NCBI GenBank assembly: GCA_002726535.1
Contig: PBTG01000079.1
Coordinates: 9,615 to 73,614, forward strand
Direction of reading: 5' to 3'
Length of the DNA: 64,000 nucleotides
Origin: Myxococcales bacterium
Lineage (GTDB): Bacteria > Myxococcota_A > UBA9042
Position 1 is the stretch's first letter; every line of letters starts with the position of its first letter. The notes below the pieces were generated by a model. That model ran no database searches. It had not been told where the DNA came from and saw nothing but the letters and a program-made list of their open reading frames with translations. Both the position numbers and the translations under genes were made by a program. This document shows positions 1 to 27,417 of this stretch, piece by piece.

Positions 1-1221
1 GGCATCGAAGTAGTCATCAAAGGTTTCTCCCATCCAGAGGATGGGATGTCTCGCGTCTGGCACATACATCTGCTCGGCCAGTCCGGGATGATGCTGGACC
101 TGGTCATTAGGGGCCTGCGCAAGGCGGGATTTGAGATGTCGGGCTCTGCCCCGCTGATCCGAGGGAGGCTCACTCAAATCCTCAACCGCGCTGAGGTTGC
201 TGGGATGCGCCAGGCGGTCAGGGATGCAGAGCGCAACAAGAAAGAGGTCCTACAGAAAGCAGAGATCCAAGCGGCGGCGACGGTTGCTAACGAGACAAAC
301 AGCGAACTCGAGCAGCTAAAGGGGGAGGTAGACCGCCTTAAGGAATTAATCGAGGACATGGCTCTTCTGCCTGCTGCTCGTGGAGCGCGGGGGCCACAAG
401 GTGCATCAGGAAAAGACGGCGTCAACGGGTCAGAGCTCGACCTTGACAACGCTTCTTTGAGCGATCTAGGGAACGTCTCGGATGAGAGGCCTCTCGAGAA
501 AATGGTCCTGACGTGGACCGACAACATGTGGCGCCCTTCCAAGGTGCCGATCAGTCGGATCAGCAATATCACGCCTGGAGGCGGCGGCGGCGGAGGTGGC
601 GGAGGTGGCGATGCAAGCCTGACCATCCAACAGCGAAGCCGTGACGACCTGAGCGCACCCCCAACGGGCACGATCGAAAACATCTCAACGCTGTCTTTCG
701 ATACAGAGTCCGGCTTCGAGGTTCAGGATCTAGGCAACGGCTCGCTCGAGGCGTTCATCAAGATGAACTCGACGTTCAACCCATGGCAGGTCGACGGCGA
801 GACGACGCTCCAAGCGACGGGCGAGGAGCCAGTCGAGTTCGTGGGCGGCCCTGGTGTGACGATCACGACCGATGCGACCACAGACCCGAAGCAAATTATC
901 TTCGAGGCCAGTGGCGGCGCGGGTGGCGGCATCCCAGAGGCTCCGCTCGACTCGCGCTACTACGTCAGATTCAACGGGACTTGGGTCGACCTGCAAGCAG
1001 CTCTAGCTCATCTGATGGTTGGCGACGGTGGCGCATTCAGGCCCGAAGGGGATGGCGGTGATTTCGCTGCGGGAACGTCCGTCACAACGACAGACCAAGT
1101 CTTCGACGGTGGCGATTTCACTGCCGGCACCTCTGAGGCCACAGATGACCAAATCATCGAAGGCACAGATGTATCCAGCCCCTACTTCGGGACAACTACT
1201 GGCCCTGAAAACTACGGCTAA
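1..1221 (+). CDS. Tail-fibre-like structural protein, 5'-truncated at the window edge (coiled-coil region, collagen-like G-X-Y triplets, poly-Gly tract)
   Basis: The frame of ORF 46..1221 stays open back to nt 1, so the gene starts upstream of the window. Translation shows a charged heptad-like segment, GARGPQGASGKDGVNG triplets and an 11-Gly run encoded by GGN codons at ~577-609. A GGAACC motif follows the stop at 1224. Confidence 0.5.
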   Translation, partial: GIEVVIKGFSHPEDGMSRVWHIHLLGQSGMMLDLVIRGLRKAGFEMSGSAPLIRGRLTQILNRAEVAGMRQAVRDAERNKKEVLQKAEIQAAATVANETNSELEQLKGEVDRLKELIEDMALLPAARGARGPQGASGKDGVNGSELDLDNASLSDLGNVSDERPLEKMVLTWTDNMWRPSKVPISRISNITPGGGGGGGGGGGDASLTIQQRSRDDLSAPPTGTIENISTLSFDTESGFEVQDLGNGSLEAFIKMNSTFNPWQVDGETTLQATGEEPVEFVGGPGVTITTDATTDPKQIIFEASGGAGGGIPEAPLDSRYYVRFNGTWVDLQAALAHLMVGDGGAFRPEGDGGDFAAGTSVTTTDQVFDGGDFTAGTSEATDDQIIEGTDVSSPYFGTTTGPENYG

Positions 1222-1256
1222 CGGAACCCTTACACGACGAGCAAGTCTCGAAAATT

Positions 1257-1541
1257 ATGCCAACCCCAACACCACGTAATCCGATCAGGCCGGCCCGCGG
1301 AAATTACGCGGACTTGCTGGCGAACATTCTCAGCCTTTATGAGGGCGAGCTTTGCTACGCGGTCGACCAGGACATCCTTTACGCAGTGGAGCAAGGCGCT
1401 TTACAGCCAGTCAATGAATTAGCAGTCCCAGGCTCTGACCCCTTGCTGACCAATATTCAAAACGCACAGCCAGGCGATTCCCTTAACTACAACGGCAGTC
1501 AGTGGGTCAGCGGGGGGCCTCAAGACGGCGGAAACTTTTAG
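1257..1541 (+). CDS. Small fibre-associated protein (C-terminal NGSQWV motif resembling fibre C-termini)
   Basis: ORF track. N-terminal NYADLLANILSLYEGELCYA resembles the N-terminal motif of neighbouring fibre ORFs. C-terminal GDSLNYNGSQWV resembles the ...WNG..WVP endings at 36960 and 38520. Confidence 0.35.
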   Translation: MPTPTPRNPIRPARGNYADLLANILSLYEGELCYAVDQDILYAVEQGALQPVNELAVPGSDPLLTNIQNAQPGDSLNYNGSQWVSGGPQDGGNF

Positions 1542-1595
1542 GAAGGCTTTGAGCTGGAAGCCTGAAGGGACCTGATCGATCGGTCTCTTTTTTTT

Positions 1596-3083
1596 ATGGC
1601 TAACCAAATCCGAATAAAGCGCAGGGCGAGCTCGGGCTCGGCAGGCGCCCCTGCATCACTCCTAAACGCAGAACTCGCTTACAACGAAGCTGACAACGTT
1701 CTGTATTACGGCTATGGCGACAACGGCTCAGGCGTTGCCACCTCCGTGGTCTCCGTTGCTGGCAACGGCAACAGCGTTTCACTGGGTACGACCCAGACGA
1801 TCACTGGAGACAAAACGTTCTCGGGCCTCCTAGACGCCACGGGCACCTTCAAAATCGACGGAGTAGAGGTCACCGCTTCTGCTGCTGAAATCAACTATCT
1901 GGTCGGCGTAACGTCAGGCGTCCAGGCCCAGATTGACGGCAACGAAACTCATATAGACAACTTGGCCACCCTTTCTGGCGTTGCCAAAGACGGGGTCGAC
2001 CTTGGCGCGTTTACTGGATCGACAATTGCTGATGACCTAACTATCAAGTCAGCCTTCCAGGCCCTGGAGACAGCCCTCGAGGACGGCTCAGGCCAGGTAA
2101 CCGCTGATAGCGGAACTGCTGAGTACGTCAGCGGCAACCTCAACATCAACGGCGGCACAGGCCTCAGCACGACCGGCGACAACTCGCAGACATTGTCGAT
2201 CGCTCTCGACAACACAGCCGTCACCGCTGCTGCCTATGGCACAGCCGATGCCGTCCCCTCCTACACAGTGGACGCACAGGGACGCTTAACCGCTGCCGCC
2301 GATGTCTCCATCGACATCGTCCACACACAGGTCTCCGACTTCGATGCAGGCGTACAGACCAACACCCTCGACAGCCTGGCTCAGCCTGTTGCTGCGGTTG
2401 TACTGAACGGACAGAAGATCACCGGCCTTGCCGACCCTGTGAACGCGCAGGACGCCGCAACGAAGGCCTACTGCGACGCCACTGCGAACGGCTTAGACGT
2501 CAAGGACTCCGTTCGTGCCGCTACGACCGCCAACGTCACTCTGAGCGGTACTCAGACCGTTGATGGCGTATCTCTGGCGTCTGGTGACCGCGTGCTGGTT
2601 AAAGACAACACAGACGCAAGCGAGAACGGTATCTATGACGTCGTTGACGGTGGCGCGTGGGTTCGTTCTGCGGACGCCGACAACAACCCCGGATCTGAGG
2701 TCACCTCAGGGATGTTCACCTTCGTTGAAGAAGGCACCAACTACGCCGACGCTGGCTTTGTCCTGCAGACGACCGGCGCAATCGTCCTCGACACCACCGA
2801 CCTGGCTTTTGTTCAGTTCTCCGGCGCTGGTCAGATCACCGCTGGGAACGGCCTCGCCAAGAGTGGCAACACACTCGATGTGGGCACTGCTGACGCAACT
2901 CGCATCGTCGTCAACGCTAATGACGTCGACCTGGCCACTCATGGCACCGCCGGCACCTACAACGGCCTGACCGTTGACGCCTACGGACGTGCGAGCAGCT
3001 TTGTTCAGCCAACGACCATCGCTGCTTACGGGATCACCGACGGCCTGACGACAAGCTCCATCGTCGACGGCGGCACGTTCTGA
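1596..3083 (+). CDS. Tail fibre protein (495 aa)
   Basis: ATG at 1596 follows a T-run. N-terminus IRIKRR..P.SLLNAELAYNE.DNVLYYG carries the shared fibre anchor motif. Composition is Ala/Gly/Thr/Val-rich. C-terminal GDRVLVKDNTDASENGIYDVVDGGAWVRSADAD is a classic phage fibre/tailspike tip motif. Confidence 0.6.
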   Translation: MANQIRIKRRASSGSAGAPASLLNAELAYNEADNVLYYGYGDNGSGVATSVVSVAGNGNSVSLGTTQTITGDKTFSGLLDATGTFKIDGVEVTASAAEINYLVGVTSGVQAQIDGNETHIDNLATLSGVAKDGVDLGAFTGSTIADDLTIKSAFQALETALEDGSGQVTADSGTAEYVSGNLNINGGTGLSTTGDNSQTLSIALDNTAVTAAAYGTADAVPSYTVDAQGRLTAAADVSIDIVHTQVSDFDAGVQTNTLDSLAQPVAAVVLNGQKITGLADPVNAQDAATKAYCDATANGLDVKDSVRAATTANVTLSGTQTVDGVSLASGDRVLVKDNTDASENGIYDVVDGGAWVRSADADNNPGSEVTSGMFTFVEEGTNYADAGFVLQTTGAIVLDTTDLAFVQFSGAGQITAGNGLAKSGNTLDVGTADATRIVVNANDVDLATHGTAGTYNGLTVDAYGRASSFVQPTTIAAYGITDGLTTSSIVDGGTF

Positions 3084-3209
3084 TAGATCCGTGAACCGAG
3101 GAACCCTAGTGCTCGGGATGGATCGGCCCTCGCCACTGCGGGGGCTTTTTCTTTGCAACGGGAATCCTAGTTCGAACAGGCCTAGATAGGCCGCAACACT
3201 GACGCCAAA

Positions 3210-3524
3210 ATGGCCAACACTGTCAAGCTAAAGCGCTCTGCAGTAGCGGGAAAAGTCCCGTCGACAGGGGATCTTGCCCTGGGCGAATTAGCTCTCAATA
3301 CGTTTGACGGCAAGGCATACATCAAAAAATCAGCCAACGGTACGGATGAGGTCATTGAGATCGGCTCAGCCAGTACGCCGATGGTGCTCACTACCAAGCG
3401 CGTGATCGACGAGAACGTGGTTGTGGCTAGCGGTGAAAATATTCTCAGCATCAACGACGTCACTGTCGCAAATGGATTCTCGGTTGAGGTCCCGACAGGT
3501 AGTACGTGGATCGTTGTGGGGTAG
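3210..3524 (+). CDS. Short fibre-like protein with the N-terminal anchor motif
   Basis: N-terminus VKLKRSAVAGKVPSTGDLALGELALNTFDGKAYIKK matches the motif of ORFs 1596, 33695 and 37472. Preceded by a GGAATCC..GTTCGAAC element. Confidence 0.4.
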   Translation: MANTVKLKRSAVAGKVPSTGDLALGELALNTFDGKAYIKKSANGTDEVIEIGSASTPMVLTTKRVIDENVVVASGENILSINDVTVANGFSVEVPTGSTWIVVG

Positions 3525-3692
3525 TCCGGGTTCTGAAAGGAACAGGTAGACTAAAAACGTCCTTTACACAGTTCTTGTCTCCAAAACGGACGGTTTAAGT
3601 AACCCCTAGGGCGGCCTGAGAACCCGCTCTTTTTTTATCGTCTTTCGGAAGCCTTGGGCGACCGGGCAGATGCCCACCGCGAAAATCGCCTT

Positions 3693-6617
3693 ATGGCATT
3701 CGGGAAGATTTACGTCGACGAGGTTATCGACTCAAATGGAGACACTCTCGACATTTCAGAACTCACCTCCAACGAGGCGACTAATGCAGCTAAGGGCTAC
3801 TTATCAGCAGCAGACAAGGCCAAGCTTGATGGTGTTGCTGCAGGTGCAGAGGTCAACGCAGTCACAAGCGTTAACGGCTCGACGGGTGCCGTCACTGTTC
3901 AGGGCTTCTCAGGCGATTATGCAGACTTAACTAATAAGCCAACAATTCCAACAATTGACCCAAATACTGTTATCGACAGCGGCTATGTAGCAACTGACGA
4001 GAACTTCACAACGTCAGACCACAGCAAGCTGGATGGCATTGAGACTGCAGCAACAGCAGACCAAACCAAAGCAGATATTGATGCACTAAATATTGACGCC
4101 GATACCCTTGATGGACAGCATGGTTCTTATTATACTGGTTATACAGACACGGCAGTTGCGGGTCTCGTATATTCTTCCCCAGCCACTTTAGATACATTAA
4201 ATGAATTAGCAGCAGCTTTAGGGGATGACCCTAATTTTGCCACTACAACTGCCAACAGTATTGGCACTAAGTTGTCAAAATCTGGCGGTCAGATGACGGG
4301 GAATATAACGTTCTCTGGGTCACAAACTGTTGATGGTAGAGATTTATCTGCTGATGGGGCCAAGCTGGATGGCGTTGCCGCAGGTGCCCAGGTCAACGCG
4401 GTCACATCGGTGAACGGCGCAACTGGCGCTGTCACGGTCCAGGGCTTCTCTGGCGCGTACGCCGACCTAACAGGCAAGCCAACGTTAGGCACTGCAGCAG
4501 CTACAGCATCCAGTGCCTACGCCACATCGACCCAGGGTGCTACGGCCGACAGTGCTCTACAGCCAGGGGACGCCAACCCTGTGATGGTTTCTGCTGTTGG
4601 AGATCTCCCCAGCGCATCATCGAATCATGGAGCAGTGATTCATGTCCACAATGAGGGCGCGATGTACTTCGCTCACTCAGGCTCATGGCACAAGCTGCAG
4701 AACGAGTCCTCGGCTTTCTCTGGGTCATACAGCAACCTGAGCAATAAGCCGACGATCATTGCGAACACCTTCAGCACGTCAGCACCCTCATCACCTAGTA
4801 CCGGTGATCTTTGGGTAGACACAACAGACACCCCTCCGGTCCTGAAGTCGTACAACGGCACAGCATGGGTTGCTGTTGGATCTGCAGGTTCCTCAACGAG
4901 CGCACCTGTGATCAATGGCGTGACGTTGTCAGAAGTTGACAGCTCAGGTGATCGCTTCACTAGCGAGTCCTTCACTGTCGCGGTCAATATGCTCGACGAT
5001 GGCTCTCCTATCAGTCAGAAGGGCGTCAAGGGCAAGGTCACCGCAACATTCGAGCAGTTCCCAGTAAGTAACGCTATTACGGCTGGGACGGTATCTACTT
5101 CCCAGACTAGTGAGGGCAATACGACTAAAGATAGTTCAACCAACCTGACACACAACGAGAGTACGGGGGCAGTCTGTTTCAACGTCGTAGACACAAGCAC
5201 TAATTCGGTTAGGTGCTTTATGTGGTATCCCGAGGGCAGCGGTAGTAGCTACGACGATATGTTAGAGAACAGCGGGAAAGATCTGTTAGCTTATACCAGC
5301 GTCGATAATGACTTTTACGGCACCGGTGAATACAAGCAGGGATTAGCCGGTGTGCAAAATAGATTGGGCACCTGGGTAAATATTATGGGCAGGCACAACA
5401 ATGTACAAGCGGCCTTCGAGGTGTCCGGGCTTCTGTCGGGCAACCCTGTAAGGTCAAACAAGAACGAAGTGTCGACAGATGCCTATATATATGTTTCTAA
5501 TGGAAGATCGTTTACTCGATATGATTTAAACCGACAAAATGGTATTAGTTTGTTTTTGGGAGGCGTTCCCTATAGCGGTGGTGGCGGCCCATACTTCATG
5601 GAAACCTTGAGCGATAGGATATTCATTGTCTCACAAAGTAGCACCAGCGGTTCTCTTTGGACTAAAGAGCTAACAGACGCTGCCAGTGCCAACTTGTCCA
5701 ACGGCAACTACATTTACCAAGATAATAATCAATCGGGCTTCAACCGGTACGACATAACGGGCTGCATTTTTCACAAAGGAAAAGTATTAATAAGTAAGGG
5801 CATTAACGGGGGCGGTATTTACGCATTTACCCCAGGCACCTCAAGTCCTACGATTTCAGGCATACCAGCGGCACCTTCTGGTTATCAAAATACTTACGGT
5901 GCGATCTGGGAAGATCCCCTTGGCAATTTAATACTTAGGACAACACACTTTAGCACCGATTGGTCGACTCAAGCTGCTTTCTACTATTCGAGTAACAACA
6001 ACGGCGCGACATGGGTTGCTAATCACTACCCATACGATTCAAACTTTAATTATGAGTATTGGACCCCAGACCTCTACCTATACGGACGGCGTCAAAAGTC
6101 CAAAAGAATAAAAGGCAGCGGCTTATCTGCCACTGTGACAAAGCAGGTCTACACAATACGCTCTCAGACGCTCACCGTCACAAATGGAGCAGATCTGAGT
6201 TCCCTGAACGTTGGAGACATCGTTAGACCGCCCGGCGAGACGGATCCACTTAAGTACTCAAAGATTGATTCAATCTCTTCGAATGGCAATGGGACGACAA
6301 ACGTTGTAGTCAATGGCTTCAATGATTTCGCTGTAGGCGATGTAATTGAGTCCACCGCATCCACCGGATCTGCTACCTCGACGAGGTTCCTCGTGATCAA
6401 TGCTCAGGGCGCCATTACGACCCATCAAGTCAGCGACCCTGGCTTTGTAACTCAAGGCCCTGGAGCGTCACACACGATCACGTTCCCTGCGACGTTCCCT
6501 ACAGGTAACTCTCCAGATGATGAGCTACCTAGTGGAACAACAATCCAGGTCGACGTCCAGGCCGTCAACTCTGAGGCCTCTGACACCTACGCATCCAACA
6601 CCCTCACCCCTTCCTAA
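3693..6617 (+). CDS. Large tail fibre / receptor-binding protein, paralogue A (frame open from TTG 3654; first ATG 3693)
   Basis: Two copies of a ~50-aa KLDG(V/I)xAGAxVNAVTSVNG(S/A)TGAVTVQGFSG repeat. Central region has Asp-box-like SNNNGATW. The C-terminal 80 aa is nearly identical to paralogue B (..ITFPATFPTG..DDELPSGTTIQVD..NTLTPS). The conserved 5' UTR is shared with 6642-6700. Confidence 0.65.
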   Translation: MAFGKIYVDEVIDSNGDTLDISELTSNEATNAAKGYLSAADKAKLDGVAAGAEVNAVTSVNGSTGAVTVQGFSGDYADLTNKPTIPTIDPNTVIDSGYVATDENFTTSDHSKLDGIETAATADQTKADIDALNIDADTLDGQHGSYYTGYTDTAVAGLVYSSPATLDTLNELAAALGDDPNFATTTANSIGTKLSKSGGQMTGNITFSGSQTVDGRDLSADGAKLDGVAAGAQVNAVTSVNGATGAVTVQGFSGAYADLTGKPTLGTAAATASSAYATSTQGATADSALQPGDANPVMVSAVGDLPSASSNHGAVIHVHNEGAMYFAHSGSWHKLQNESSAFSGSYSNLSNKPTIIANTFSTSAPSSPSTGDLWVDTTDTPPVLKSYNGTAWVAVGSAGSSTSAPVINGVTLSEVDSSGDRFTSESFTVAVNMLDDGSPISQKGVKGKVTATFEQFPVSNAITAGTVSTSQTSEGNTTKDSSTNLTHNESTGAVCFNVVDTSTNSVRCFMWYPEGSGSSYDDMLENSGKDLLAYTSVDNDFYGTGEYKQGLAGVQNRLGTWVNIMGRHNNVQAAFEVSGLLSGNPVRSNKNEVSTDAYIYVSNGRSFTRYDLNRQNGISLFLGGVPYSGGGGPYFMETLSDRIFIVSQSSTSGSLWTKELTDAASANLSNGNYIYQDNNQSGFNRYDITGCIFHKGKVLISKGINGGGIYAFTPGTSSPTISGIPAAPSGYQNTYGAIWEDPLGNLILRTTHFSTDWSTQAAFYYSSNNNGATWVANHYPYDSNFNYEYWTPDLYLYGRRQKSKRIKGSGLSATVTKQVYTIRSQTLTVTNGADLSSLNVGDIVRPPGETDPLKYSKIDSISSNGNGTTNVVVNGFNDFAVGDVIESTASTGSATSTRFLVINAQGAITTHQVSDPGFVTQGPGASHTITFPATFPTGNSPDDELPSGTTIQVDVQAVNSEASDTYASNTLTPS

Positions 6618-6624
6618 GACATCA

Positions 6625-6644
6625 GGGGCTTCGGCCCCTTTTTT
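6625..6644 (+). terminator. Rho-independent terminator
   Basis: GGGGC-TTCG-GCCCC followed by TTTTTT, immediately after the stop of the fibre gene. Confidence 0.7.
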
Positions 6645-6699
6645 ATTGCTTATTCGGAAGCCTTTTGCGACCGGGCAGATGCCCACAGCTCACCCGCAA

Positions 6700-9570
6700 A
6701 TGTCGGATTCCTACGGAAAAATAAAAGTCGACGAGATCGAAAATTCAGACGGAACTCTGCTCGATCTAACGACAGCAGTGACGACAGAAGCGACGACCTC
6801 AACGAAGGGCTACTTATCCGCAGCAGACAAGGCCAAGCTCGACGGTATCGAGGCCGGCGCTGAAGTCAATGGGGTGACTTCTGTCAACGGCTCGACCGGG
6901 GCCGTGACCATTCAGGGCTTCTCTACAGCAAACAATGCCAAGCTCGACGGGATCGAAACAGGGGCTACGGCAGATCAAACTAAAGCAGATATTGATGCGC
7001 TGAACGTTGACGCAGATACCCTTGACGGTCAACACGGCTCTTATTACACAGGCTATGCGGATACAGCAGTTGCAAGCCTTGTAGATTCGTCTCCTAGCAC
7101 TCTTGATACGCTTAATGAGCTTGCCGCGGCACTTGGTGATGACCCTAACTTTGCGACTACGGTAACCAATAGTATTGGCACTAAGTTACCACTTGCTGGT
7201 GGTCAGATGACGGGAAACATAGCGTTTTCCGGGTCACAAACTGTTGATGGTAGAGATTTATCTGCTGATGGTTCTAAACTTGATGGAATCTCTGCAGGTG
7301 CAGAGGTCAACGCAGTCACAAGCGTTAATGGTGCGACGGGTGCCGTCACTGTTCAAGGATTTTCAGGCGATTACGACGACTTGACTAATAAGCCAGACGG
7401 CTCAGGTTCAGGATTAGATGCTGACAAGGTTGATGGTCTTGAAGCAACTAGTTTCTTAAGATCTGATGCTAATGCTACTTATAACGGTGGTATGCTGACC
7501 ATCAGGTCAAATAGTAACGTCGGAAATTACTGGGCAACAGGTATAGAATATGACAGTGGATGGAAGCATACAAACGCAAATAGTTGGGGATTTGCTTTTA
7601 GGAATAATGGAACCAATGGTTTGCAAATTAAAGTCGCTTCTGAAGCAGGAACAAACCAAAGTGCTGCAACTTACAGGGTGCTGGATATTGGTGGCGCTAC
7701 TCAGAGATTAAAATATGACAACTATGATGTTTGGCACGCAGGAAATTCGACCCCCATTGAGAATGCTTTTGGGTCTTCAGCGCCCTCATCACCTAGTACC
7801 GGCGACTTCTGGGTAGACACCACAGACGACCCCCCGGAGCTCAAGTCATACGATGGTACGGCCTGGGTCCCCATGGGCTCCTCAGCTCCAACCGTTAGCG
7901 CTCCAATCATCAACGGCGTCACGCTGGCAGAAGACAACACGTCCGGCGCTCGCTTCACGAGCAAAGGATTTACGGCAACGATCAACATGCTCAACGACGG
8001 CGCCCCTATTAGCCAAAAAGCTGTAAAGGGCAAGGTCACCGCAGCATTTGAAACGTTCCCAGCTATGCCCGCTGCGTCCTCCAACAGCAGCTCGAGTTAT
8101 GCGAACGGATCTTCTCTTACCGTTCTCAACCGCTGGCAGGTCGACGCCGACGGTGTTCGGATACCAGTCAACGAGCCAGGTCGCAGAGGCTTTCTGACCC
8201 TTTACAGATACGCAGCCAATAATTCGACGGCGCAATCTTTCTACTTCTCCGACGACATGGATATGGAATGGTATAACAGTGGCACCCTGCTTCTCAGTGA
8301 TTTCGGAAACCAAACCACGAAGCCGACATACACAAACATCGTACATCCGACTAACAATAACGCGATAACCCTATACAACGCCTACACTAAGGACAGGGCT
8401 TATGTGATGTACTGGGACGCGAATGGTGCCTTCCAGGTTGCCAATCAATTAGGCGGCCAGGTACTCACTGATCCAGACAATCCGAACAGCGAATATTTTC
8501 AATGGAGCAGCCAGACTAATGGGAGCATGAAAAGAATGGACAAGTATCCCAGCCCAACTACGACCACCACTTCTAACGGCGCCAAAAACTCACTCGGTTT
8601 GTATAACGTTGATGATACGTTTGCTGTAGGGAATGGCATCATTGTTGCCGCAGGACGCAGCTCGGGTGGTAACAATTATCGACCCACTATCTTCACCCGC
8701 CCCGTCAACTTCGGCCAAAACTCCGGCCCTACTAGCTACTTTTTCGGGGCATCGTCAAACAGGAACATTAACTTCATTAAGTACGTGAAGGGCTACTTCT
8801 GGCTTGTCGATAATTCAGAATTGTTCCGGTCATCCACGGGAGCACAGAGCAGTTGGACGTCTATTAATACTAGCTATAACGGAAATGGTCAAAAGCTTAA
8901 GGACATAACAGTCGACCAGAACGGGCACCTGGTCGGCGTGTTCGTCCAAAACAGCAACGGCTCCTCCCGGATGATGAAATCCAATAACTTTGGAGCTACC
9001 TGGGTCTTGTACGGCAGCCTGTCGAACCCTCCTACGAGCGAATATCAGTCCGTTTTCGTTGCAAACAACAGGATTTACGCCTCGGTTCACACCCATTCTG
9101 CGACGATAAACTGGGCCAAGGTAAACACTCAGACAGTCACAGTCTCATCGACTGGCGGTGATTACAACGAATTCAACGTGGGTGACCTTGTCAAGCCTCA
9201 AGGCTCAACCGACTCAGGCGACGTCGGCAAGATCGAGTCAATCTCCGGCACAAGTATTGGCCTCGACTCCCAGTATCTCTACCAAGTGGGAGATGTAATT
9301 GAGGCGACCAACTCAACAGGAACCGCCACCGCGACCCGGTATCTCGTGATTAGCGGGACCGGTGCTATCTCGACCCATCAGGCGAGCGACCCTGGATACG
9401 TGACTCTCAACGCTGGCACCTCCCAGACGATCACCTTCCCCGCAACATTCCCGACAGGCGAAACACCTGACGATGAACTGCCCAGCGGAACGACCATCCA
9501 GGTCGACATCCAGGCGACCAACTCCCAGGCCTCCGACACCTATCCATCCAACACCCTCACCCCTTCCTGA
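6700..9570 (+). CDS. Large tail fibre / receptor-binding protein, paralogue B (alternative ATG 6679; ORF track starts 6517 overlapping upstream gene)
   Basis: Its N-terminal KLDG/VNAVTSVNG repeats and C-terminal 80 aa match paralogue A. The central ~650 aa differ and contain Asp-box-like SNNFGATW. The stop overlaps the downstream chaperone start (TGATCATG). Confidence 0.65.
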   Translation: MSDSYGKIKVDEIENSDGTLLDLTTAVTTEATTSTKGYLSAADKAKLDGIEAGAEVNGVTSVNGSTGAVTIQGFSTANNAKLDGIETGATADQTKADIDALNVDADTLDGQHGSYYTGYADTAVASLVDSSPSTLDTLNELAAALGDDPNFATTVTNSIGTKLPLAGGQMTGNIAFSGSQTVDGRDLSADGSKLDGISAGAEVNAVTSVNGATGAVTVQGFSGDYDDLTNKPDGSGSGLDADKVDGLEATSFLRSDANATYNGGMLTIRSNSNVGNYWATGIEYDSGWKHTNANSWGFAFRNNGTNGLQIKVASEAGTNQSAATYRVLDIGGATQRLKYDNYDVWHAGNSTPIENAFGSSAPSSPSTGDFWVDTTDDPPELKSYDGTAWVPMGSSAPTVSAPIINGVTLAEDNTSGARFTSKGFTATINMLNDGAPISQKAVKGKVTAAFETFPAMPAASSNSSSSYANGSSLTVLNRWQVDADGVRIPVNEPGRRGFLTLYRYAANNSTAQSFYFSDDMDMEWYNSGTLLLSDFGNQTTKPTYTNIVHPTNNNAITLYNAYTKDRAYVMYWDANGAFQVANQLGGQVLTDPDNPNSEYFQWSSQTNGSMKRMDKYPSPTTTTTSNGAKNSLGLYNVDDTFAVGNGIIVAAGRSSGGNNYRPTIFTRPVNFGQNSGPTSYFFGASSNRNINFIKYVKGYFWLVDNSELFRSSTGAQSSWTSINTSYNGNGQKLKDITVDQNGHLVGVFVQNSNGSSRMMKSNNFGATWVLYGSLSNPPTSEYQSVFVANNRIYASVHTHSATINWAKVNTQTVTVSSTGGDYNEFNVGDLVKPQGSTDSGDVGKIESISGTSIGLDSQYLYQVGDVIEATNSTGTATATRYLVISGTGAISTHQASDPGYVTLNAGTSQTITFPATFPTGETPDDELPSGTTIQVDIQATNSQASDTYPSNTLTPS

Positions 9571-9572
9571 TC

Positions 9573-9854
9573 ATGAACGAACAACAGCAAAAAGCAGCGC
9601 AGGCTCTATTCGAGACCTACGACCAAAGAGTTCAAGACACGTCCTTAACTGTCGAGGCCGCATGGTCTAACAAGTTGGCAGGCGAGGCCGTGATCAAGAG
9701 ACAAGGCCTTCTCCAGGCCTCTGACTGGACACAACTACCAGACGTTCCGGTAGACAAGCCAGCGTGGGCCACCTACAGGCAGGCGCTAAGGGACATAACG
9801 GAACAACAGGACTATCCGTTGCTGATCGACTGGCCAGAGGCTCCCTCCGCCTAG
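9573..9854 (+). CDS. Tail fibre assembly chaperone (Caudovirales Tfa-like)
   Basis: C-terminal AWATYRQALRDITEQQDYPLLIDWPEAP matches the conserved W..YR..L..I....P..I.WP..P end of the lambda Tfa / tail fibre assembly family. It lies directly downstream of the fibre gene with 2-nt spacing. A terminator follows at 9862-9883. Confidence 0.6.
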   Translation: MNEQQQKAAQALFETYDQRVQDTSLTVEAAWSNKLAGEAVIKRQGLLQASDWTQLPDVPVDKPAWATYRQALRDITEQQDYPLLIDWPEAPSA

Positions 9855-9861
9855 TAATACC

Positions 9862-9883
9862 GGCCCCTTCGGGGGCTTTTTTG
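9862..9883 (+). terminator. Rho-independent terminator
   Basis: GGCCCC-TTC-GGGGGC followed by TTTTTTG, after the Tfa-like gene. Confidence 0.7.
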
Positions 9884-9921
9884 TTGCCCCTTCGGAACCC
9901 TGACGCAGCAGCGGTTCCCGA

Positions 9922-12900
9922 GTGTCTGAAGCAAAGAAACTCGACGCTCGGATGCTCCAGTGGCAGGACCAGTTAAGCGGCCTGACTGAGACAAACAGGG
10001 AGCAAGTAACACGCACATTGGCGCGTTCAATCAGCGGGACAGTGGCCGATCTGAAAGTTGCCTACAGCAAGTTCAACGCATCAGAAGGAACGAGCAACCG
10101 ATACACCATCGAAAGCCAGACGGTGAGATTCAGAGAGCTCACCAAAGCAGCCGAGGGGTTGATAGGCCCAGGAGCGCTAAAGAACATCAAGGCGATCTAT
10201 GAAAACGATCTAAACGACGCCTACTCGCTCGGGACGTCTGCAAGCAGAGATCTCACCAAGATCGTTGATGGCGCGGACACAAGCGCACAAGCAATGATCT
10301 CGAAGATGCCTGTAGCTGCGCAGGCAGCAGCAGGTCAGAACTTGATGCAGTTCTGGGACAAAGAAAAAGCAGCCTTAACCAACAAAGTCAGAGAAGCGAC
10401 CCTCTCCGCATTGCAGCGCGGCAAAGGATGGGCATCAGCTCAAAAAGACATCGCACAGGCCCTTCGCTCAAGTGGCCAGACAATCCTGAGGGGTAGAGAC
10501 GAGCTCAGCGTCACGGCCCGCGGCGGAATCGTGATGAACCTCGAGCAGCGGGCTGATCTGATCGCAAAGACGGAGATGGCTAACGCTTACATCCAGGGCC
10601 AGATATCGCAGTACAAACAAAACGGATACACACACGGCAGATGGTCGGCCACGGGTGAAAGAACTTGCCCGTTTTGTGTGAGTCGTGAGGGCAACATCTA
10701 TACCCTCGACGAGCTCGAAGGCGCGATCCCTGCGCATCCTCGCTGTCGTTGCACGATCGCCCCTGTCCTTGAGGAGAACGTCAAGAACGTCCAGAACGCA
10801 AGGGACCAGGGAGCGTCGGCGGCCCTGAACCTTGACGACGCTGGATGGACGGCAATACGTCAACAACGATTCAACGAATACCAGAAGTTCACCGGCAAGC
10901 CATTAGCTGATCCATCTAGGTGGATGAATGCGCCTACCAGTCGCCAAAAATTTCTAAACCCCAGGGCACAAGGAGACAAGCCCGCGTGGATGCCGTCGGG
11001 GAATGTTGTGCCAAACCTCGAGGGCGCACAGGCCGCCGCGATCAGAGCAAAGGATCTCGAGGCCGCTTCGAAAGAAGACCAGAAGGATCTGGATGCACAG
11101 AACAAAGAGATCGAAAAGCAGAAGCAAGCCGCGAAGCTGGTGAAAGAGCGCAAGGGCGAGGAGTTCACCTTTAAGCGCTTTAGCGACGCTACCGGCGACG
11201 AACCAGGTCCGGACACGAACTGGACTTCCGAGAGGCAGAAGCTGCACGACAAAATTGTTCAGAACTTCCTGAAGGACGGCAAGAAAAGCGCGACTCCAAC
11301 TTTCACCATGTCTGGCGGCGGCCCGGCTTCAGGGAAGGGCTTCATGCTGAAGAAGACCGGCCTAGATCAACCCGGCAAGGTAGTGATTGATGCCGATGAG
11401 ATCAAAAAGCTCATCCCTGAGTACGCCAAAGCCCAGAAGAAAGGCGGCGATGCACAGCAAGCTGCGGCGGGCGTTGTTCACGAGGAGTCGAGCTATCTCG
11501 CCAAGCGAATCATGGGCGAAGCTTCCAAGCGTGGTTTTGACATCGTTCTCGACGGCACTGGAGATAGCGGCATCAAGTCGCTAACCAAAAAGGTTCAGAA
11601 GATGCGCGATGAGGGGTATCGAGTTGAGGGGAAATATGTCAGCGCAGATACGGAGACCGCTGCACAGCGCAACTGGGATCGCTTCCTCAAAACTGGCCGG
11701 CTCCCACCCGAGTGGATGCTCCGCAATGTTCACGCCGACGTCTCGCGCACTTTGCCTAAGGCAATGCAGGACGGCCTGTTCGATGAGATCGAGCTTTATG
11801 ACACGAACAAGTCAGGGGAGCTGCGCAAGGTAGCCAGCCAGAAGGGCAAAAATAATCCAAAGATCCACGACAGCAAACTTTGGGACGACTTCAAGCGCAA
11901 GGGTGAGGCTGGACTTGTCACAAAAGAGCAGGGCGAGCGGCTAATCGAAGCCCGCAAACTGAAGGTGGACGTTAAAGCCAAGAGCAGCCACGGCAAGCAC
12001 AGCAATGCTCGCGCCGAAGGGGCCGAGCCTGGCCCCGATACCGTGTGGACCCTTGACCGCCAGAAGCTCCATAAGGAGATTGTCGACAAGTTCCTCGCCA
12101 ACGGTGCCAAGTCGGCTAACCCGACGTTCACCATGAGCGGAGGCGGCCCCGCTTCAGGTAAAGGCTTCATGCTGAAAGCCACTGGACTCGACAAGCCCGG
12201 AAAGGTCGTTATTGACGCAGACGAGATCAAAAAGCTGATTCCCGAGTATGCGGATGCCCAGAAGAAAGGTGGCAAAGCCCAACAGCAGGCAGCCGGATAT
12301 GTCCACGAAGAATCGAGCTACCTGGCCAAGCGGATCATGGCCGAAGCTGCGAAGCGCAGTTATGACGTCGTACTTGATGGCACAGGCGATAGCGGGATCA
12401 ATTCGCTATCCAAAAAAGTGCAAAAAATGCGTGACCAGGGCTATCGCGTTGAGGCGAAATACGTCAGTGCTGACACCGAGCTGGCTGCGCAAAGGAATTG
12501 GGATCGCTTCCTGAAAACAGGACGCCTACCGCCCGAGTGGATGCTTCGGAACGTTCATGCCGATGTGTCTCGGACACTTCCCGAGGCAATGAAGAAAGGC
12601 CTATTCGACGCGGTGGAGCTGTTTGACACCAATCTGAGCGGCCAACTGCGCAAGGTCGTCAGCCAGAAAGGCAAAAGCAAGCCCGAGATTCTCGACAAGC
12701 AGTTATGGAACGACTTCCAGAACAAGGGAAAAGCCAAGCAGGTCACGCCCGAGGAAGGCGAGGCAATGATCGCCAAGCGAAAGGCCGAGACCGAGGACCT
12801 CTCAAAGACAAGATCTGCAGGCACAGGCAAAACACCCGCAAAGACAAAGCCTTCCCCCACTAAGGCAAAGGAGAGCGACATGGTTGACCGGGCGACGCGA

Positions 12901-15126
12901 ATGAAGACCAGCGACGTCTTGGCTGATCCCTCCCGCTTCCAGTACAAGGTCAACTCGAACAGCAAGACAGGGGAGGTCGGCTCACTGTCCGGGGTCAAGA
13001 CTTGGAACGAGGATTTGGCAGGCGTTCTTTCGGTCTGGAAGGACCCGGCCAACGGGAAGACCTACGTCATCAACGGACACAACAGGCTTGCGCTAGCAAA
13101 GAAGCTCGGCGCCAAAGAGCTCCCCGTTGTTGTCATTAACGCCAAAGACGCCAAGGCGGCAAGGTCGATCGGCGCGAAACAAAACATCGCGAACGGTGAT
13201 GGAACCGCAATTGATGCGGCCAAGTTCATGCGCGACACCAACACAACAGCGCGAAGCCTGAAGGCCCAGGGCCTGAATTTGAAAGGATCTATCGCTTCAG
13301 ATGGCGCTGCCCTGGCGAACCTGCCCGACCATATTTTTAGGGCCGCTCTTGAGGGCCGGCTGTCGATCAGTCGAGCAGCCGCAATTGGTCGAAGTGGCCT
13401 GTCATCCGGGCAGATGAACAGCGCTTACAACGTGTTGAAGACAAAGCCTTCGATGTCTGTGGGCACTCTCGACGAGGTGCTTTCGAATGCCAGAGCTTCA
13501 GTAACACGCACCACAAGCGAAGAGACACTGTTCGGGACAACTACTACTCAGACTTCGACCCTGGTCGAGCGGGCCGATTTGGCCGCGAAGTTAAAGGCTG
13601 ATATGGGCAAAGAGGTGAGGATCCTCGACAAGGCTGCAGGCCGTGCCGATGTATTGAACAGCAAAGGAAACCGGATTGATGCGGGCAAGGCTCAGGTGAA
13701 GGCGGCTGAAGCGCAGGCACGCCTCGAGGTTTTTGAGCTGACAAAAAACAGTCAGGGTTCGAACCTGAACAAGACGCTGAACGAGGCCGCTTCTGCAATC
13801 CAGGATGCCGGTGGACGCTCGGCCAAGGCTCAGGCCACCAAGACCGGGAGAACAGCCGTCGATCAGGCCCTCGACGCAGAAATTGCAGCAATGAAGAAAA
13901 ACAGCAGCGGCTTACTTCGAAGCATCGCTGACCTCAAAGCCGTGGAGGCCGGCAAGGTCGCCCGCCCGCCCGAGCTCGCACTTGCTGCGGAAGCTCCAGA
14001 CTTGACTATCGACAAACGGCCCACGCGGTTGCTCGATCCGAAGACTGCGAAGGCAGGGTCAATCGGAGCTTTAAGGGTTAATCAAATCAAAGCCGACCCG
14101 AAGCGCTTCCAATACAAAGCCGCAACCGTCGCCGCCACTGGTGAGGTGGGTTCACTCGATGGAGTCCAGCGGTTCGACCCCAATCTCGCCGGAGTTATCA
14201 GCGTGTGGAAGGACCCAGCCAATGGGCAGACATACGTTATCAACGGCCACAACCGCCTAGCCGCGGCGAAGCGATTAGGGGCCGACGATATCGCTGTCAG
14301 ATATCTCAAAGCCGACAGGGCTGAGGATGCACGCTCTATCGGAGCACTGGCCAACATTGCCGAGGGCCACGGAACGGCGCTTGACGCCGCGAAGTTCATG
14401 AGAGCTAAGGGCTACTCCGGCACTGACATGAGGGCGCGGGGAATTGCCATGAAAAAAGATGTTGCCCGTGATGGCGCCGCTCTGGCCAACCTCCCCGAAG
14501 AAATCTTTGGGGATGTGGTGAACGAGAACATCTCAATAGAGAAAGCGTCTGCAATTGGATCCGGCGGACTGGACCGAAAGGGGATGGAGGCCGTCTACAG
14601 AAATCTGAGAACCCGGCCGGCGGCATCCGTGAAAACGGTGACCGAGCTTGTCGCGGCTGAAAAGATGTCGATGGAGATGGGGAGCACCGGCTCGCTATTT
14701 GCTGAATCCGCCGATGATCTGGCCTATCAGATGAACCGGGCCGACTTGACCGGCAAGGTTCGCGACGACTTGTTAAAAGAAAAATCACTCTTTAAGGCGG
14801 TAAGCACAAGCCGGGCGGCTCGTGATCTTGAGAAGGCAGGCTCGACTCTTGACCTGGCAGCCAACAGCAAGGCTGCGGCTCAGGCCGAGACGATCCTTTC
14901 CGTGTTTGATCAACTGAAAAACAGCAGCGGCCCTGTGGCCTCCGCCCTTAGCAGTGGCGCCCGAGATCTCGCTGTCGCCAAAACTGCTGCTGAGAAGAAT
15001 GTTGTCCGCCGCAGAGTGATGGATGACATCTCTAAGGCCGTCGATCAGGAACTTGGCGGAAACCTCGGCAGTGTGGAAGAACCACCTTCGGAGGCTCCCG
15101 GCCAGGAATCCCTGTTCGGGTTTTAA
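9922..15126 (+). CDS. Polyvalent virion protein: MuF/SPP1-gp7-like head-morphogenesis domain + 2x zeta-toxin-like P-loop kinase + 2x ParB-like nuclease domain
   Basis: GTG start. aa 240-280 CPFCVSREGNIYTLDELEGAIPAHPRCRCTIAP is the hallmark C-terminal motif of Mu F / SPP1 gp7 minor head proteins. aa ~425-660 and ~702-940 are two near-identical repeats (period 277 aa) with P-loop TFTMSGGGPASGKGF, VVIDADEIKKLIPEY and VLDGTGDSG (zeta-toxin-like). aa ~995-1190 and ~1385-1580 are two repeats with DP.RFQYK...TYVINGHNRLA(L/A)AK(K/R)LGA (ParB/Srx-like). Confidence 0.8.
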   Translation: MSEAKKLDARMLQWQDQLSGLTETNREQVTRTLARSISGTVADLKVAYSKFNASEGTSNRYTIESQTVRFRELTKAAEGLIGPGALKNIKAIYENDLNDAYSLGTSASRDLTKIVDGADTSAQAMISKMPVAAQAAAGQNLMQFWDKEKAALTNKVREATLSALQRGKGWASAQKDIAQALRSSGQTILRGRDELSVTARGGIVMNLEQRADLIAKTEMANAYIQGQISQYKQNGYTHGRWSATGERTCPFCVSREGNIYTLDELEGAIPAHPRCRCTIAPVLEENVKNVQNARDQGASAALNLDDAGWTAIRQQRFNEYQKFTGKPLADPSRWMNAPTSRQKFLNPRAQGDKPAWMPSGNVVPNLEGAQAAAIRAKDLEAASKEDQKDLDAQNKEIEKQKQAAKLVKERKGEEFTFKRFSDATGDEPGPDTNWTSERQKLHDKIVQNFLKDGKKSATPTFTMSGGGPASGKGFMLKKTGLDQPGKVVIDADEIKKLIPEYAKAQKKGGDAQQAAAGVVHEESSYLAKRIMGEASKRGFDIVLDGTGDSGIKSLTKKVQKMRDEGYRVEGKYVSADTETAAQRNWDRFLKTGRLPPEWMLRNVHADVSRTLPKAMQDGLFDEIELYDTNKSGELRKVASQKGKNNPKIHDSKLWDDFKRKGEAGLVTKEQGERLIEARKLKVDVKAKSSHGKHSNARAEGAEPGPDTVWTLDRQKLHKEIVDKFLANGAKSANPTFTMSGGGPASGKGFMLKATGLDKPGKVVIDADEIKKLIPEYADAQKKGGKAQQQAAGYVHEESSYLAKRIMAEAAKRSYDVVLDGTGDSGINSLSKKVQKMRDQGYRVEAKYVSADTELAAQRNWDRFLKTGRLPPEWMLRNVHADVSRTLPEAMKKGLFDAVELFDTNLSGQLRKVVSQKGKSKPEILDKQLWNDFQNKGKAKQVTPEEGEAMIAKRKAETEDLSKTRSAGTGKTPAKTKPSPTKAKESDMVDRATRMKTSDVLADPSRFQYKVNSNSKTGEVGSLSGVKTWNEDLAGVLSVWKDPANGKTYVINGHNRLALAKKLGAKELPVVVINAKDAKAARSIGAKQNIANGDGTAIDAAKFMRDTNTTARSLKAQGLNLKGSIASDGAALANLPDHIFRAALEGRLSISRAAAIGRSGLSSGQMNSAYNVLKTKPSMSVGTLDEVLSNARASVTRTTSEETLFGTTTTQTSTLVERADLAAKLKADMGKEVRILDKAAGRADVLNSKGNRIDAGKAQVKAAEAQARLEVFELTKNSQGSNLNKTLNEAASAIQDAGGRSAKAQATKTGRTAVDQALDAEIAAMKKNSSGLLRSIADLKAVEAGKVARPPELALAAEAPDLTIDKRPTRLLDPKTAKAGSIGALRVNQIKADPKRFQYKAATVAATGEVGSLDGVQRFDPNLAGVISVWKDPANGQTYVINGHNRLAAAKRLGADDIAVRYLKADRAEDARSIGALANIAEGHGTALDAAKFMRAKGYSGTDMRARGIAMKKDVARDGAALANLPEEIFGDVVNENISIEKASAIGSGGLDRKGMEAVYRNLRTRPAASVKTVTELVAAEKMSMEMGSTGSLFAESADDLAYQMNRADLTGKVRDDLLKEKSLFKAVSTSRAARDLEKAGSTLDLAANSKAAAQAETILSVFDQLKNSSGPVASALSSGARDLAVAKTAAEKNVVRRRVMDDISKAVDQELGGNLGSVEEPPSEAPGQESLFGF

Positions 15127-15141
15127 AAAGTAAACTGAACC

Positions 15142-15381
15142 ATGATCGATCTCAGTAATCAAGCGATTCGCGAAAGTTTCGATGCCATGCTCGAAGCCGT
15201 GTCAGAAGTGATTTCACCGGAGGAGCTAGTGATCTGGCATCACCGGATCGAAAACTGTGACAACCTCAGCCAGGCTGCAGAGGTGACCACCCAGATGATC
15301 GGCCGGCCGATGTCAGACGAGGAGCGACAGGAGGCTGACGAGGTCCGCCAGTCGCTAATCCTGTACGGAGAGGATCTTTGA
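15142..15381 (+). CDS. Hypothetical small acidic protein
   Basis: ORF track. The ATG lies 16 nt after the stop of the polyvalent gene. No recognised motif. Confidence 0.35.
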   Translation: MIDLSNQAIRESFDAMLEAVSEVISPEELVIWHHRIENCDNLSQAAEVTTQMIGRPMSDEERQEADEVRQSLILYGEDL

Positions 15382-15398
15382 TGAGGGCCGTTAGTACC

Positions 15399-15437
15399 GG
15401 TTCGAACCTTGACAGGTCCGGTCCGGAAAGGTAAGTT
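15399..15437 (+). promoter_or_regulatory. Sigma70-like promoter preceded by GGTTCGAACC palindrome
   Basis: GGTTCGAACC-TTGACA-N17-TAAGTT, then an AGGAGG RBS and ATG 15467. Confidence 0.45.
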
Positions 15438-15466
15438 ATGCACGACGCCCTCAGGAGGCAAAACCA

Positions 15467-15667
15467 ATGGCTCTCTATGCCGACGAGATGGAGAAGATTG
15501 TCACCCAAGTAGCTCGCGGTGAAGAGCCACAGGTCCGCGAATCGAAAGATGCGGCGGAATTCCGTGAGGGGGTCACCAACGAAATCGAAGAAGCCCGCAA
15601 GATCGCAGAAGAGCGCGGCCTCGACTTCATGGTCGAGATCATTAACGAGACTCCAGAGATGTGGTGA
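15467..15667 (+). CDS. Hypothetical small acidic protein
   Basis: ORF track. Strong RBS AGGAGG 8 nt upstream. Preceded by the TTGACA-N17-TAAGTT promoter at 15409-15437. Confidence 0.4.
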   Translation: MALYADEMEKIVTQVARGEEPQVRESKDAAEFREGVTNEIEEARKIAEERGLDFMVEIINETPEMW

Positions 15668-15738
15668 TTGGCCTGAGAAGTCAATGCCTGAGTGAGCTTT
15701 TCATCTGACGGAACACTCAGGCAGTACCAAACTGACCA

Positions 15739-15984
15739 GTGACTCAGTCCGTAAACATCCTGCGAATCGTTTTTAATTCCGGCCGAGTCGTCGAAGAGCG
15801 TGGCGGAGAGGACATGATCATTGCTCTGTTTGCGCGAGACATTGAGGGCTTGATCGATTACATCATGGCTATCGATATGAGTGATGGGAAAGTGAATATC
15901 TACTGCGACGAAGACGACCAGCGATTTAATAACACTGAGGTCTTGATGTCGACGGATGTCCTCAGGTGGAACCGCCGGAGCTGA
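15739..15984 (+). CDS. Hypothetical protein
   Basis: ORF track only. Confidence 0.3.
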   Translation: MTQSVNILRIVFNSGRVVEERGGEDMIIALFARDIEGLIDYIMAIDMSDGKVNIYCDEDDQRFNNTEVLMSTDVLRWNRRS

Positions 15985-16117
15985 TTGTTACGAAACGCGA
16001 CAAGCTGGGGTAGAATGAAGCGCAGATGGTCCTCTTCGGGCATAATGAGCGCAGATCAGTTGAGCATCTCTTCGAGCTCCTGGTCGAAATCAATTCGTCC
16101 ATCTACAGATTTTTCTC

Positions 16118-16309: not shown

Positions 16310-16400
16310 CTGCTCTGAAGGGGCAACGGTTGCAAGCGATCCGGGTAGAATGACTTATCAGCATTAGAACCTTGATCATCTTCGTCTTGCAGAACTTGAT

Positions 16401-23184: not shown

Positions 23185-27417
<4,233 letters not shown>

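Follow-up and report, generated by a model that had tools for sequence, protein, structure and literature searches.

Phage K1-5 carries two different tailspikes for two hosts, and the endosialidase endoNF of coliphage K1F is a trimeric spike that combines a six-bladed catalytic sialidase propeller bearing Asp-box motifs with a C-terminal intramolecular chaperone (Peptidase_S74). In the staphylococcal phages phi11 and 80alpha, each chain of the Gp45 trimer has a propeller 'platform' that binds a cell-wall glycopolymer. Fibre genes followed by the gene of an assembly chaperone are familiar from Tfa of Mu, P2 and lambda and from gp37-gp38 of T4. In the siphovirus DT57C, two adjacent fibre genes, encoding LtfA and LtfB, carry different receptor-recognition domains (PMC4728585). 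The chaperone gp25 of Pam3 embraces the distal part of the fibre gp24 (PMC9608196), and fibre and chaperone modules are shared between the unrelated marine Alteromonas phages A5 and V22 (PMC10579305). Here we describe a locus in a 64,000-nucleotide (nt) stretch of phage DNA (contig PBTG01000079.1 of assembly GCA_002726535.1, positions 9,615 to 73,614; hereafter the window), in which two adjacent fibre genes, A and B, precede one gene for a tail-fibre assembly chaperone. The locus is a further case of the well-known mosaicism of tail fibres and of dual receptor-binding proteins, and involves no new principle.

Gene A (3693-6617) is translated into 974 amino acids (aa) beginning MAFGKIYVDE, and gene B (6700-9570) into 956 aa beginning MSDSYGKIKVDE. 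Both, like the modules, leaders and terminators described below, lie on the + strand. Their open reading frames (ORFs) are intact and PHROG tail-fibre families match the N-terminal modules of both, in agreement with the initial annotation of this DNA, which had recognised two adjacent paralogous fibre genes. That annotation had placed the pair at 3631-9570, the true starts and ends of the genes being those given above, and had called the genes giant, a term that lengths of about 970 aa do not merit. The chaperone gene (Phage_tail_APC; 9573-9854, + strand, 93 aa) begins 2 nt after the stop codon of B and is the only one at the locus. Taking the evidence below together, we consider it probable that A and B, both intact, are old paralogues of one modular receptor-binding fibre of the virion, with swappable propeller cassettes, a shared tip and chaperone, and a common leader.

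Comparison of A with B by BLASTP and MAFFT alignment, from which the module map was drawn, gave two blocks of homology (A2-457 with B4-454, and A767-974 with B761-956) and revealed a five-part mosaic of three conserved segments (N, M and C) and two variable ones (V1 and P). The N-module (A 1-265, 3693-4487; B 1-232, 6700-7395) is 80-93% identical in blocks, with a 33-aa insertion in A at residues 74-106. It is followed by V1 (A 266-350, 4488-4742, 85 aa; B 233-345, 7396-7734, 113 aa), which is unrelated between the two proteins (13-25% identical). The middle module M, of about 107 aa (A 351-457, 4743-5063; B 346-454, 7735-8061), is 67-69% identical depending on the method, and 57-80% per 30-column window. 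The propeller segments P, again unrelated, comprise 309 aa in A (PA, 458-766, 5064-5990) and 306 aa in B (PB, 455-760, 8062-8979). An Asp-box-like motif comes next (SNNNGATW at A767, 5991-6014; SNNFGATW at B761, 8980-9003), then a poorly conserved stretch (A780-825), and finally the C-module (A 826-974, 6168-6614; B 812-956, 9133-9567), along which identity climbs from 45% to 100%, the last 95 aa being 67-100% identical.

The boundaries in this map are sharp, with identity dropping from 70-90% to 13-25%, and no continuous homology extends over the full length of the two proteins. A full-length profile comparison of A and B did align them end to end; this alignment was driven by the shared flanks and was discarded. 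Several details of the first description can now be refined. The KLDGxxAGAxVNAVTSVNGxTGAVTVQGFSG repeats are indeed present, two per protein, in the form of four 137-nt DNA copies. The near-identity of the C-termini holds as well, over a module of about 150 aa and not the 80 aa first proposed. The unrelated centre, put at about 600 aa, shrinks to about 400 aa in two blocks split by the conserved 107-aa M, and the Asp-box-like motifs, described as several per protein, are one in each, at the edge of the shared region.

In the N-modules the PHROG matches (phrog_1197 at E 6e-18 and 2e-20, and also phrog_2631, phrog_7032 and others) cover only aa ~5-270, and a sequence search of the PDB matched fibre chains 9d93 and 6v8i through a generic N-terminal fibre motif alone. 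The Pfam and NCBIfam profile libraries returned nothing for A or B. Except for a generic fibre motif of about 37 aa, the N-module is restricted to the present phage lineage; over 5000 marine fibre proteins contain parts of it joined to different C-termini, such as Peptidase_S74 and Mtd_N. Since A and B share their N-terminal 230-265 aa, each presumably docks independently, unlike LtfA and LtfB, which are not N-terminal paralogues and of which LtfB hangs on LtfA as a branched fibre (PMC4728585). The T5-like phages DT57C and DT571/2 nevertheless resemble our phage in that host range shifts by recombination within a fibre gene and in that the locus varies among close relatives (PMC4728585). A and B have no sequence similarity to the Ltf proteins, and their receptor-binding domains are predicted propellers. 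That the phage carries two alternative long fibres, as first suggested, is plausible from the sequence.

Where on the virion such fibres would sit is less certain. The locus lies directly upstream of a gene for a 1734-aa head-morphogenesis protein of the MuF/SPP1 gp7 type (9922-15126), far from the tape-measure and baseplate genes; the neighbouring gene at 1596-3083 matches PHROGs of head decoration and virion structure; and the best PDB sequence match is a chain named 'tail collar fibers gp4', over a generic motif of about 70 aa only. A and B might on these grounds be whisker-like or decorating fibres of the head, neck or collar, serving reversible first contact or environmental sensing and not committed receptor binding. 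We regard this as unlikely, if still worth keeping in mind: tail-fibre families heavily dominate the PHROG matches, the locus includes a Phage_tail_APC chaperone, the distal domains are hypervariable and horizontally exchanged in the manner typical of host-recognition proteins, and in phages whose modules are scattered little can be read from the position of a gene.

The distal halves of both proteins were modelled by AlphaFold2 with family alignments (A355-974, predicted local distance difference test score, pLDDT, 80; B345-956, pLDDT 70). The models are all-beta: a small beta domain (M) leads into about seven groups of four strands, after which the chain forms one or two further small beta domains (C). 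Foldseek matched both large variable segments to beta-propellers only, with PDB E values of 1e-5 to 1e-7 and template modelling (TM) scores of 0.3-0.55. The PDB matches included sortilin Vps10, WD40 proteins, rhamnose-glucuronate lyase, 6-phosphogluconolactonases and pseudaminidase, and those in BFVD a marine viral 'sialidase domain-containing protein', gp424/427 of Bacillus phage G and a mycobacteriophage minor tail protein. On this basis a beta-propeller, probably of seven blades, is predicted for each of the large variable segments, and the propeller-like fold anticipated in the initial annotation is borne out by the models. In both models the Asp-box-like motif comes after strand three of the sixth group, which is the canonical Asp-box position, and it is invariant or near-invariant across the family.

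An Asp-box in a propeller brings to mind the sialidases, and the propellers could be enzymatic, as sialidase-like proteins or as glycoside hydrolases or lyases of another kind, which would make the fibres depolymerase-type tailspikes that degrade surface polysaccharide. Besides the motif itself, the fold matches to pseudaminidase (2w38/3h6j), rhamnose-glucuronate lyase (7esl), glycoside hydrolase BT3686 and the marine viral 'sialidase domain-containing protein' speak for such activity. We find it rather doubtful. These matches are generic (TM 0.2-0.55, about 10% identity), and WD40 proteins and sortilin rank equal or higher. The motif has N in place of the D of SxDxGxTW and occurs once per protein, not in successive blades, and no Pfam BNR or sialidase profile matches A or B even at E<=1. 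The strand count suggests seven blades, against six in sialidases. The sialidase-like fold raised as a further option in the first description therefore finds no backing in the single motif, the profile searches or the generic fold matches. A spike of the S74-type endosialidase kind was ruled out by the missing Peptidase_S74 domain: PF13884 has no match at the C-terminus of A or B, and does occur in other proteins sharing parts of the N-module. The likeness to the K1 endosialidase spikes accordingly lies in a beta-propeller with Asp-box motif(s) as the host-recognising part, and in the dual spikes of K1-5, while A and B differ from endoNF in having no S74 domain, one Asp-box-like motif, probably seven blades and no sign of catalysis. 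With Gp45 of phi11 and 80alpha they have in common that a siphovirus receptor-binding protein contains a beta-propeller; Gp45 is five-bladed, integrated into the baseplate and without a separate chaperone gene, and there is no sequence relationship.

The half of the fibre that comprises M, P and C belongs to a family whose homologues were found in marine metagenomes only, all without annotation. Its profile matched 89 representative clusters at E<=1e-30 and 505 at E<=1e-10, out of 1.84 billion representatives, and our literature search on cyanophage fibre propellers and P-SS2 fibres found no description of it. Both A and B show the traits of the family, which are a conserved M, a variable centre of about 300-360 aa, and a C-module ending ...TFPATFPTG..PD.ELP.GTT..V...ATNS. 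When the separate modules were run by tblastn against 34 fetched metagenomic loci (L001 and so on), the unit of M, variable centre, C-module and APC chaperone gene was found to recur among them. PA-type centres are present in L010 (95%), L011 (48%), L002 (45%) and L014 (29%), and PB-type centres in L001 (41%) and L026 (37%). Most of the loci carry neither, so at least three types of centre exist. Tandem fibre pairs of this family also occur in L002, L021 and L031. Two TARA contigs among the loci, L012 and L016 (44-65 kilobases, kb), contain arrays of large fibre-like genes (1636, 685, 869, 574 and >1881 aa; DUF7483) together with two separate Phage_tail_APC genes, and appear to be multi-fibre loci of other marine phages.

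The comparison of A with L010 provides direct evidence, at the level of nucleotide sequence, for a recent exchange of the PA cassette between phages. Over ~5039-6300 (+ strand), that is, PA and the first ~45 aa of the C-module, A is 97-100% identical in nucleotides to this metagenomic contig, versus 72-80% in M and 82-88% in the last 300 nt, and the N-terminal half of the L010 fibre is unrelated. Expressed as synonymous divergence (dS), the cassette stands at 0.048 and its flanks at 0.79 and 0.69. A second line of evidence comes from close relatives of the window. L036 is 98% identical to positions 581-3849, and for L037 and L039, where they cover this region, the figure is 95-96.5%; the stretch conserved in L036-L039 includes upstream genes of 94, 495 and 104 aa, the leader of A and the first 157 nt of A. 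Beyond this point slot A of L036-L039 holds a 326-aa protein consisting of N and V1A only, an overlapping 952-aa DUF7483 protein and an 86-aa protein. After the 86-aa gene comes the leader of B, with one substitution, and a B-like gene start at 93% identity. L035 has a 415-aa N-only version. It follows that a locus of two slots and two leaders is conserved in this lineage, and that the distal part of slot A is replaceable. On this comparison gene A of the window is a fusion of a proximal N and V1A part with an M-PA-C receptor-binding half, and slot A of the L036 type looks like a split version of the fibre, with separate proximal and distal proteins. In L036 (3112-7240; also in L037 and L038) the 326-aa N-only protein ends HVHGEGAMYFAHSGAWVKLQ, the 952-aa protein has two DUF7483 stretches, and the 86-aa protein has no family. 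The exchange of receptor-binding cassettes proposed at the outset is thereby upheld, by the dS contrast with L010 and by slot A of L036-L039, in a form with two variable and three conserved segments and not with a single central block.

One may still ask whether the two propellers arose in place. In this scenario there was a simple tandem duplication in situ, host-driven selection then made the exposed segments diverge fast, cassettes were never exchanged, and the propellers are homologous but changed beyond recognition. The similar lengths of PA and PB, their common predicted fold, the same conserved Asp-box-like hairpin at the same blade position and the duplication of the leaders along with the genes are all in keeping with it, as is the 67% identity between the M modules of the two proteins, higher than that of either to any locus but L010. 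Profile comparison by hhalign detected no sequence homology of PA and PB with clean family profiles (E 0.11), for which sequences P0015-P0019 were removed and B was limited to full-coverage homologues; a broader B-side profile gave a weak similarity (E 0.003, probability 10%) over the final ~110 residues of PA and PB, which also fits this scenario. A first hhalign result for the central segments, with an E value of 1.8e-12, was an artefact of contamination of alignment A1 by P0015-P0019, which match A in the C-terminal ~40% only and, we infer, carry B-like centres. Duplication without exchange is improbable in view of the sharp boundaries, the low dS of the A cassette to a contig whose flanks are at 0.7-0.8, the separate occurrence of PA- and PB-type propellers in other backbones, and the wholesale replacement of slot A in L036-L039. 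The C-modules point the same way: that of A is slightly nearer to other PA-type C-modules (66-68%) than to that of B (64%), and that of B is nearest to a PB-type fibre (66%). It is the denial of exchange that is rejected here; a duplication of the backbone with later exchange is compatible with all of these data.

The shared modules of A and B show dS of 1.2-2.2, so that synonymous sites are saturated, with ratios of nonsynonymous to synonymous divergence (dN/dS) of 0.06-0.20. Purifying selection therefore acts on both paralogues, which are old, and neither is decaying. Within modules that are otherwise ~75% identical we found exact matches of 41 nt in register (4317-4357 and 7231-7271) and of 37 nt out of register (3838-3874 in repeat 1 of A and 7292-7328 in repeat 2 of B); another of 24 nt lies at the 3' ends of the two genes. 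The long exact matches hint at short tracts of gene conversion between the paralogues. That one copy is a silent spare or a decaying gene, for instance a donor cassette for recombination, could be argued from the terminator that separates A from B and from the lack of a chaperone gene belonging to A, and is very improbable given two intact ORFs, the low dN/dS, a conserved leader before both genes that is kept in relatives, and the lack of inverted repeats or of an invertase-type architecture. An invertible fibre switch of the Mu Gin or P1 Cin type was likewise rejected, as both genes are complete, on the same strand and not flanked by inverted repeats; a scan of 3000-10200 gave only two weak inverted-repeat pairs, of 19-23 nt and with 74-79% complementarity, and no invertase screen was made of the rest of the window.

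Upstream of each fibre gene lies a 34-nt leader element, TTCGGAAGCCTTnnGCGACCGGGCAGATGCCCAC, whose two copies are identical at 32 of 34 positions and are the only ones in 64 kb, with none expected. Leader A (TTCGGAAGCCTTGGGCGACCGGGCAGATGCCCAC, 3644-3677) is 15 nt upstream of the ATG of A, and leader B (TTCGGAAGCCTTTTGCGACCGGGCAGATGCCCAC, 6653-6686) 13 nt upstream of that of B. Each follows a hairpin and T-run, and the shared upstream element noticed in the initial annotation is thus real. The hairpin before A (3608-3636) has 7 base pairs, a 9-nt loop, a T7 run and a folding energy of -9.1 kcal/mol, its loop being too long for the terminator scanner. That after A (GGGGCTTCGGCCCC, with its T-run 6624-6645; -11.8 kcal/mol, z -3.4) lies together with leader B in the 82-nt spacer between the genes, and a third terminator-like hairpin with T-run (9862-9883) closes the unit of B and the chaperone gene. 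In relatives, leader A is identical in L035 and has 2 substitutions in L036-L039, and leader B, with one substitution, precedes the B-like gene of L036. An element so well preserved between genes with saturated synonymous sites must itself be under selection and is not a neutral remnant of the duplication.

The first 11 nt of the leader, TTCGGAASCCT, occur four times on the + strand of the window (3644, 6653, 9891 and 18207), against 0.11 expected. All four copies are just upstream of gene starts, and three of them lie 8-13 nt after a terminator hairpin and T-run. The third copy (TTCGGAACCCT, 9891-9901) is upstream of the gene for the 1734-aa head-morphogenesis protein. Only the two fibre genes have the second half of the leader, GCGACCGGGCAGATGCCCAC, which includes the palindrome GGGCA..TGCCC. 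A structured RNA was rejected as the nature of the leader, which folds no better than its shuffles and has no match in Rfam. As the phage encodes its own sigma factor, the most likely reading is that the leader and its TTCGGAASCCT core are a candidate phage-specific promoter or operator.

The 93-aa chaperone matches Pfam PF16778 at E 4.6e-17 (62 bits against a cutoff of 26.6) and PHROG tail fibre assembly families. A chaperone gene directly 3' of a fibre gene was found in about 20 related loci, and nearly all related fibres have one to themselves. None follows A, where the 82-nt gap holds the terminator and leader B instead, and L031 likewise has two fibres with a recognisable chaperone gene after the second only. 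The chaperones nearest to that of the window are those after PA-type fibres, in L010 (85%) and L011 (62%). In L010 the fibre stop is followed by TGATCATG and then the chaperone gene, the same junction as at gene B in the window. Relative to L010, the last ~100 aa of the fibre and the chaperone share the same, backbone-level divergence, from which the propeller differs. By analogy with known fibre-chaperone modules, the conserved tip would be the substrate of the chaperone, with one chaperone serving both fibres, and the tip is probably conserved because of the single downstream chaperone gene. Like Tfa, gp37-gp38, Pam3 and A5/V22, the locus has a small chaperone gene immediately 3' of a fibre gene; in those systems the chaperone acts on the distal fibre, and tip and chaperone move horizontally between unrelated phages. 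It departs from them in that one PF16778 gene apparently suffices for two fibre genes, and in that the exchange involves the propeller but neither the extreme tip nor the chaperone.

With this in mind, a model can be proposed for A and B as receptor-binding fibres. According to this model, the N-module would provide lineage-specific attachment and the shaft, so that both fibres dock at the same kind of virion site, with the middle module acting as a conserved linker. The propeller cassette (~300-400 aa, about seven blades and one Asp-box-like hairpin) would bind a host surface structure and set specificity. The conserved C-terminal tip would be recognised by the single Phage_tail_APC chaperone, which would fold and trimerise both fibres. 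The two genes would be expressed as separate terminator-bounded units, leader-A-terminator and leader-B-chaperone-terminator, and the shared leader would be a common promoter or regulatory signal co-expressing A and B late in infection. Propeller cassettes would be swapped between phages by homologous recombination within the conserved M and tip modules, an exchange of which A offers the example, and larger replacements of the distal fibre also take place, as seen in the relatives. Two different receptor-binding heads on one phage would broaden or hedge its host range.

Several observations count against this model or limit its details. That A and B are trimeric virion proteins which bind a receptor and need the chaperone is a prediction from genes and models. 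The fibre genes adjoin the head-morphogenesis gene and lie ~13 kb upstream of the tape-measure gene, with more fibre-like genes near the baseplate region, and the label 'tail' fibre is therefore tentative. The link between tip and chaperone comes from the co-inheritance of the last ~100 aa with the chaperone and from precedent, and across loci the divergence of the chaperone tracks M (r 0.91) better than the whole C-module (r 0.61), in comparisons of few, non-independent pairs. The blade count was taken from strand counts and from the best matches, which are mostly seven-bladed, and not from coordinates. The weak profile similarity at the ends of the propeller segments makes a very ancient common ancestry of PA and PB possible. 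As for the leader, its failure to fold better than shuffles or to match Rfam is joined by an absence of sigma-70-like hexamers in both copies.

One may speculate further that the M-propeller-C family with its APC chaperone is a widespread plug-in system for host recognition in marine (cyano)phages, in which M and the tip act as landing pads for recombination and cassettes circulate fast between unrelated phages, and that the window carries this system doubled, under a 34-nt leader which is the promoter or operator of a fibre regulon dependent on the phage sigma factor. This larger picture is tentative and we would not yet bet on it. The host range of marine cyanophages is hard to predict from sequence, and the locus gives leads: a cleanly delimited receptor-binding architecture of M, propeller, tip and APC chaperone, which neither Pfam nor NCBIfam models cover although dozens to hundreds of metagenomic clusters contain it; one transfer of a propeller cassette with mapped breakpoints, quantified by synonymous divergence; and the testable hypothesis that one chaperone services two fibres through a conserved tip. 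Possible uses are the annotation of receptor-binding domains in viromes and the guiding of fibre engineering.

That the window is phage DNA is evident from a tape-measure protein (23185-27417) and a major capsid protein (40494-41417), besides baseplate- and fibre-like proteins, a primase, a DnaB helicase, RecT and ThyX. The sigma factor (58028-58924) has its best match in a cyanobacterial RpoD family, with a score under the cutoff of that model. The closest cultured relative is the cyanophage P-SS2 (NC_013021), a siphovirus of Prochlorococcus: over ~930 aa (aa 32-964) the 1734-aa head-morphogenesis protein is 55% identical to its gp030. Both phages have a sigma factor and a large genome of the siphovirus type, and the generic fibre motif is shared through gp072 of P-SS2, which at this position lacks any equivalent of the A/B locus and has a different gene order and no similarity at the nucleotide level. 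Megablast of the locus and of 39-64 kb of the window against 50,697 phage records gave no nucleotide match, IMG/VR scans with gene A for close relatives and with the leader motif returned nothing, and a scan of GTDB genomes found no relatives and so gave no prophage or host assignment. Judged by its genes, the phage is a novel siphovirus distantly related to P-SS2, and we infer that its host is a marine picocyanobacterium.

The 1734-aa head-morphogenesis protein has additional matches of the ParB-like-nuclease type near aa 1040-1100, and its C-terminal part matches both the terminal portion of a long 'portal protein' PHROG and proteins from the Prochlorococcus podovirus P-SCSP1. The ~2 kb downstream of its gene (15142-17246) contain short ORFs only (79-130 aa). 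Three more proteins of the window (1596-3083, 3210-3524 and 37472-38635) begin with the widespread fibre motif MA..I.(I/L)KR(S/R)...G.P....L..GELA.N, and the phage thus has several fibre-like proteins with an anchor unlike that of A and B. Among the distal tail genes, a 507-aa ORF (32135-33658) has an extreme cysteine content with many CxxC and CxC motifs (for example CEPCEFEEKECNDFCDSW), which is unusual for a protein of a virion module. Near the start of the window, a 391-aa ORF (46-1221) has a collagen-like stretch (GARGPQGASGKDGVNG) as well as 13 consecutive glycines, and shows 98% nucleotide conservation in L036.

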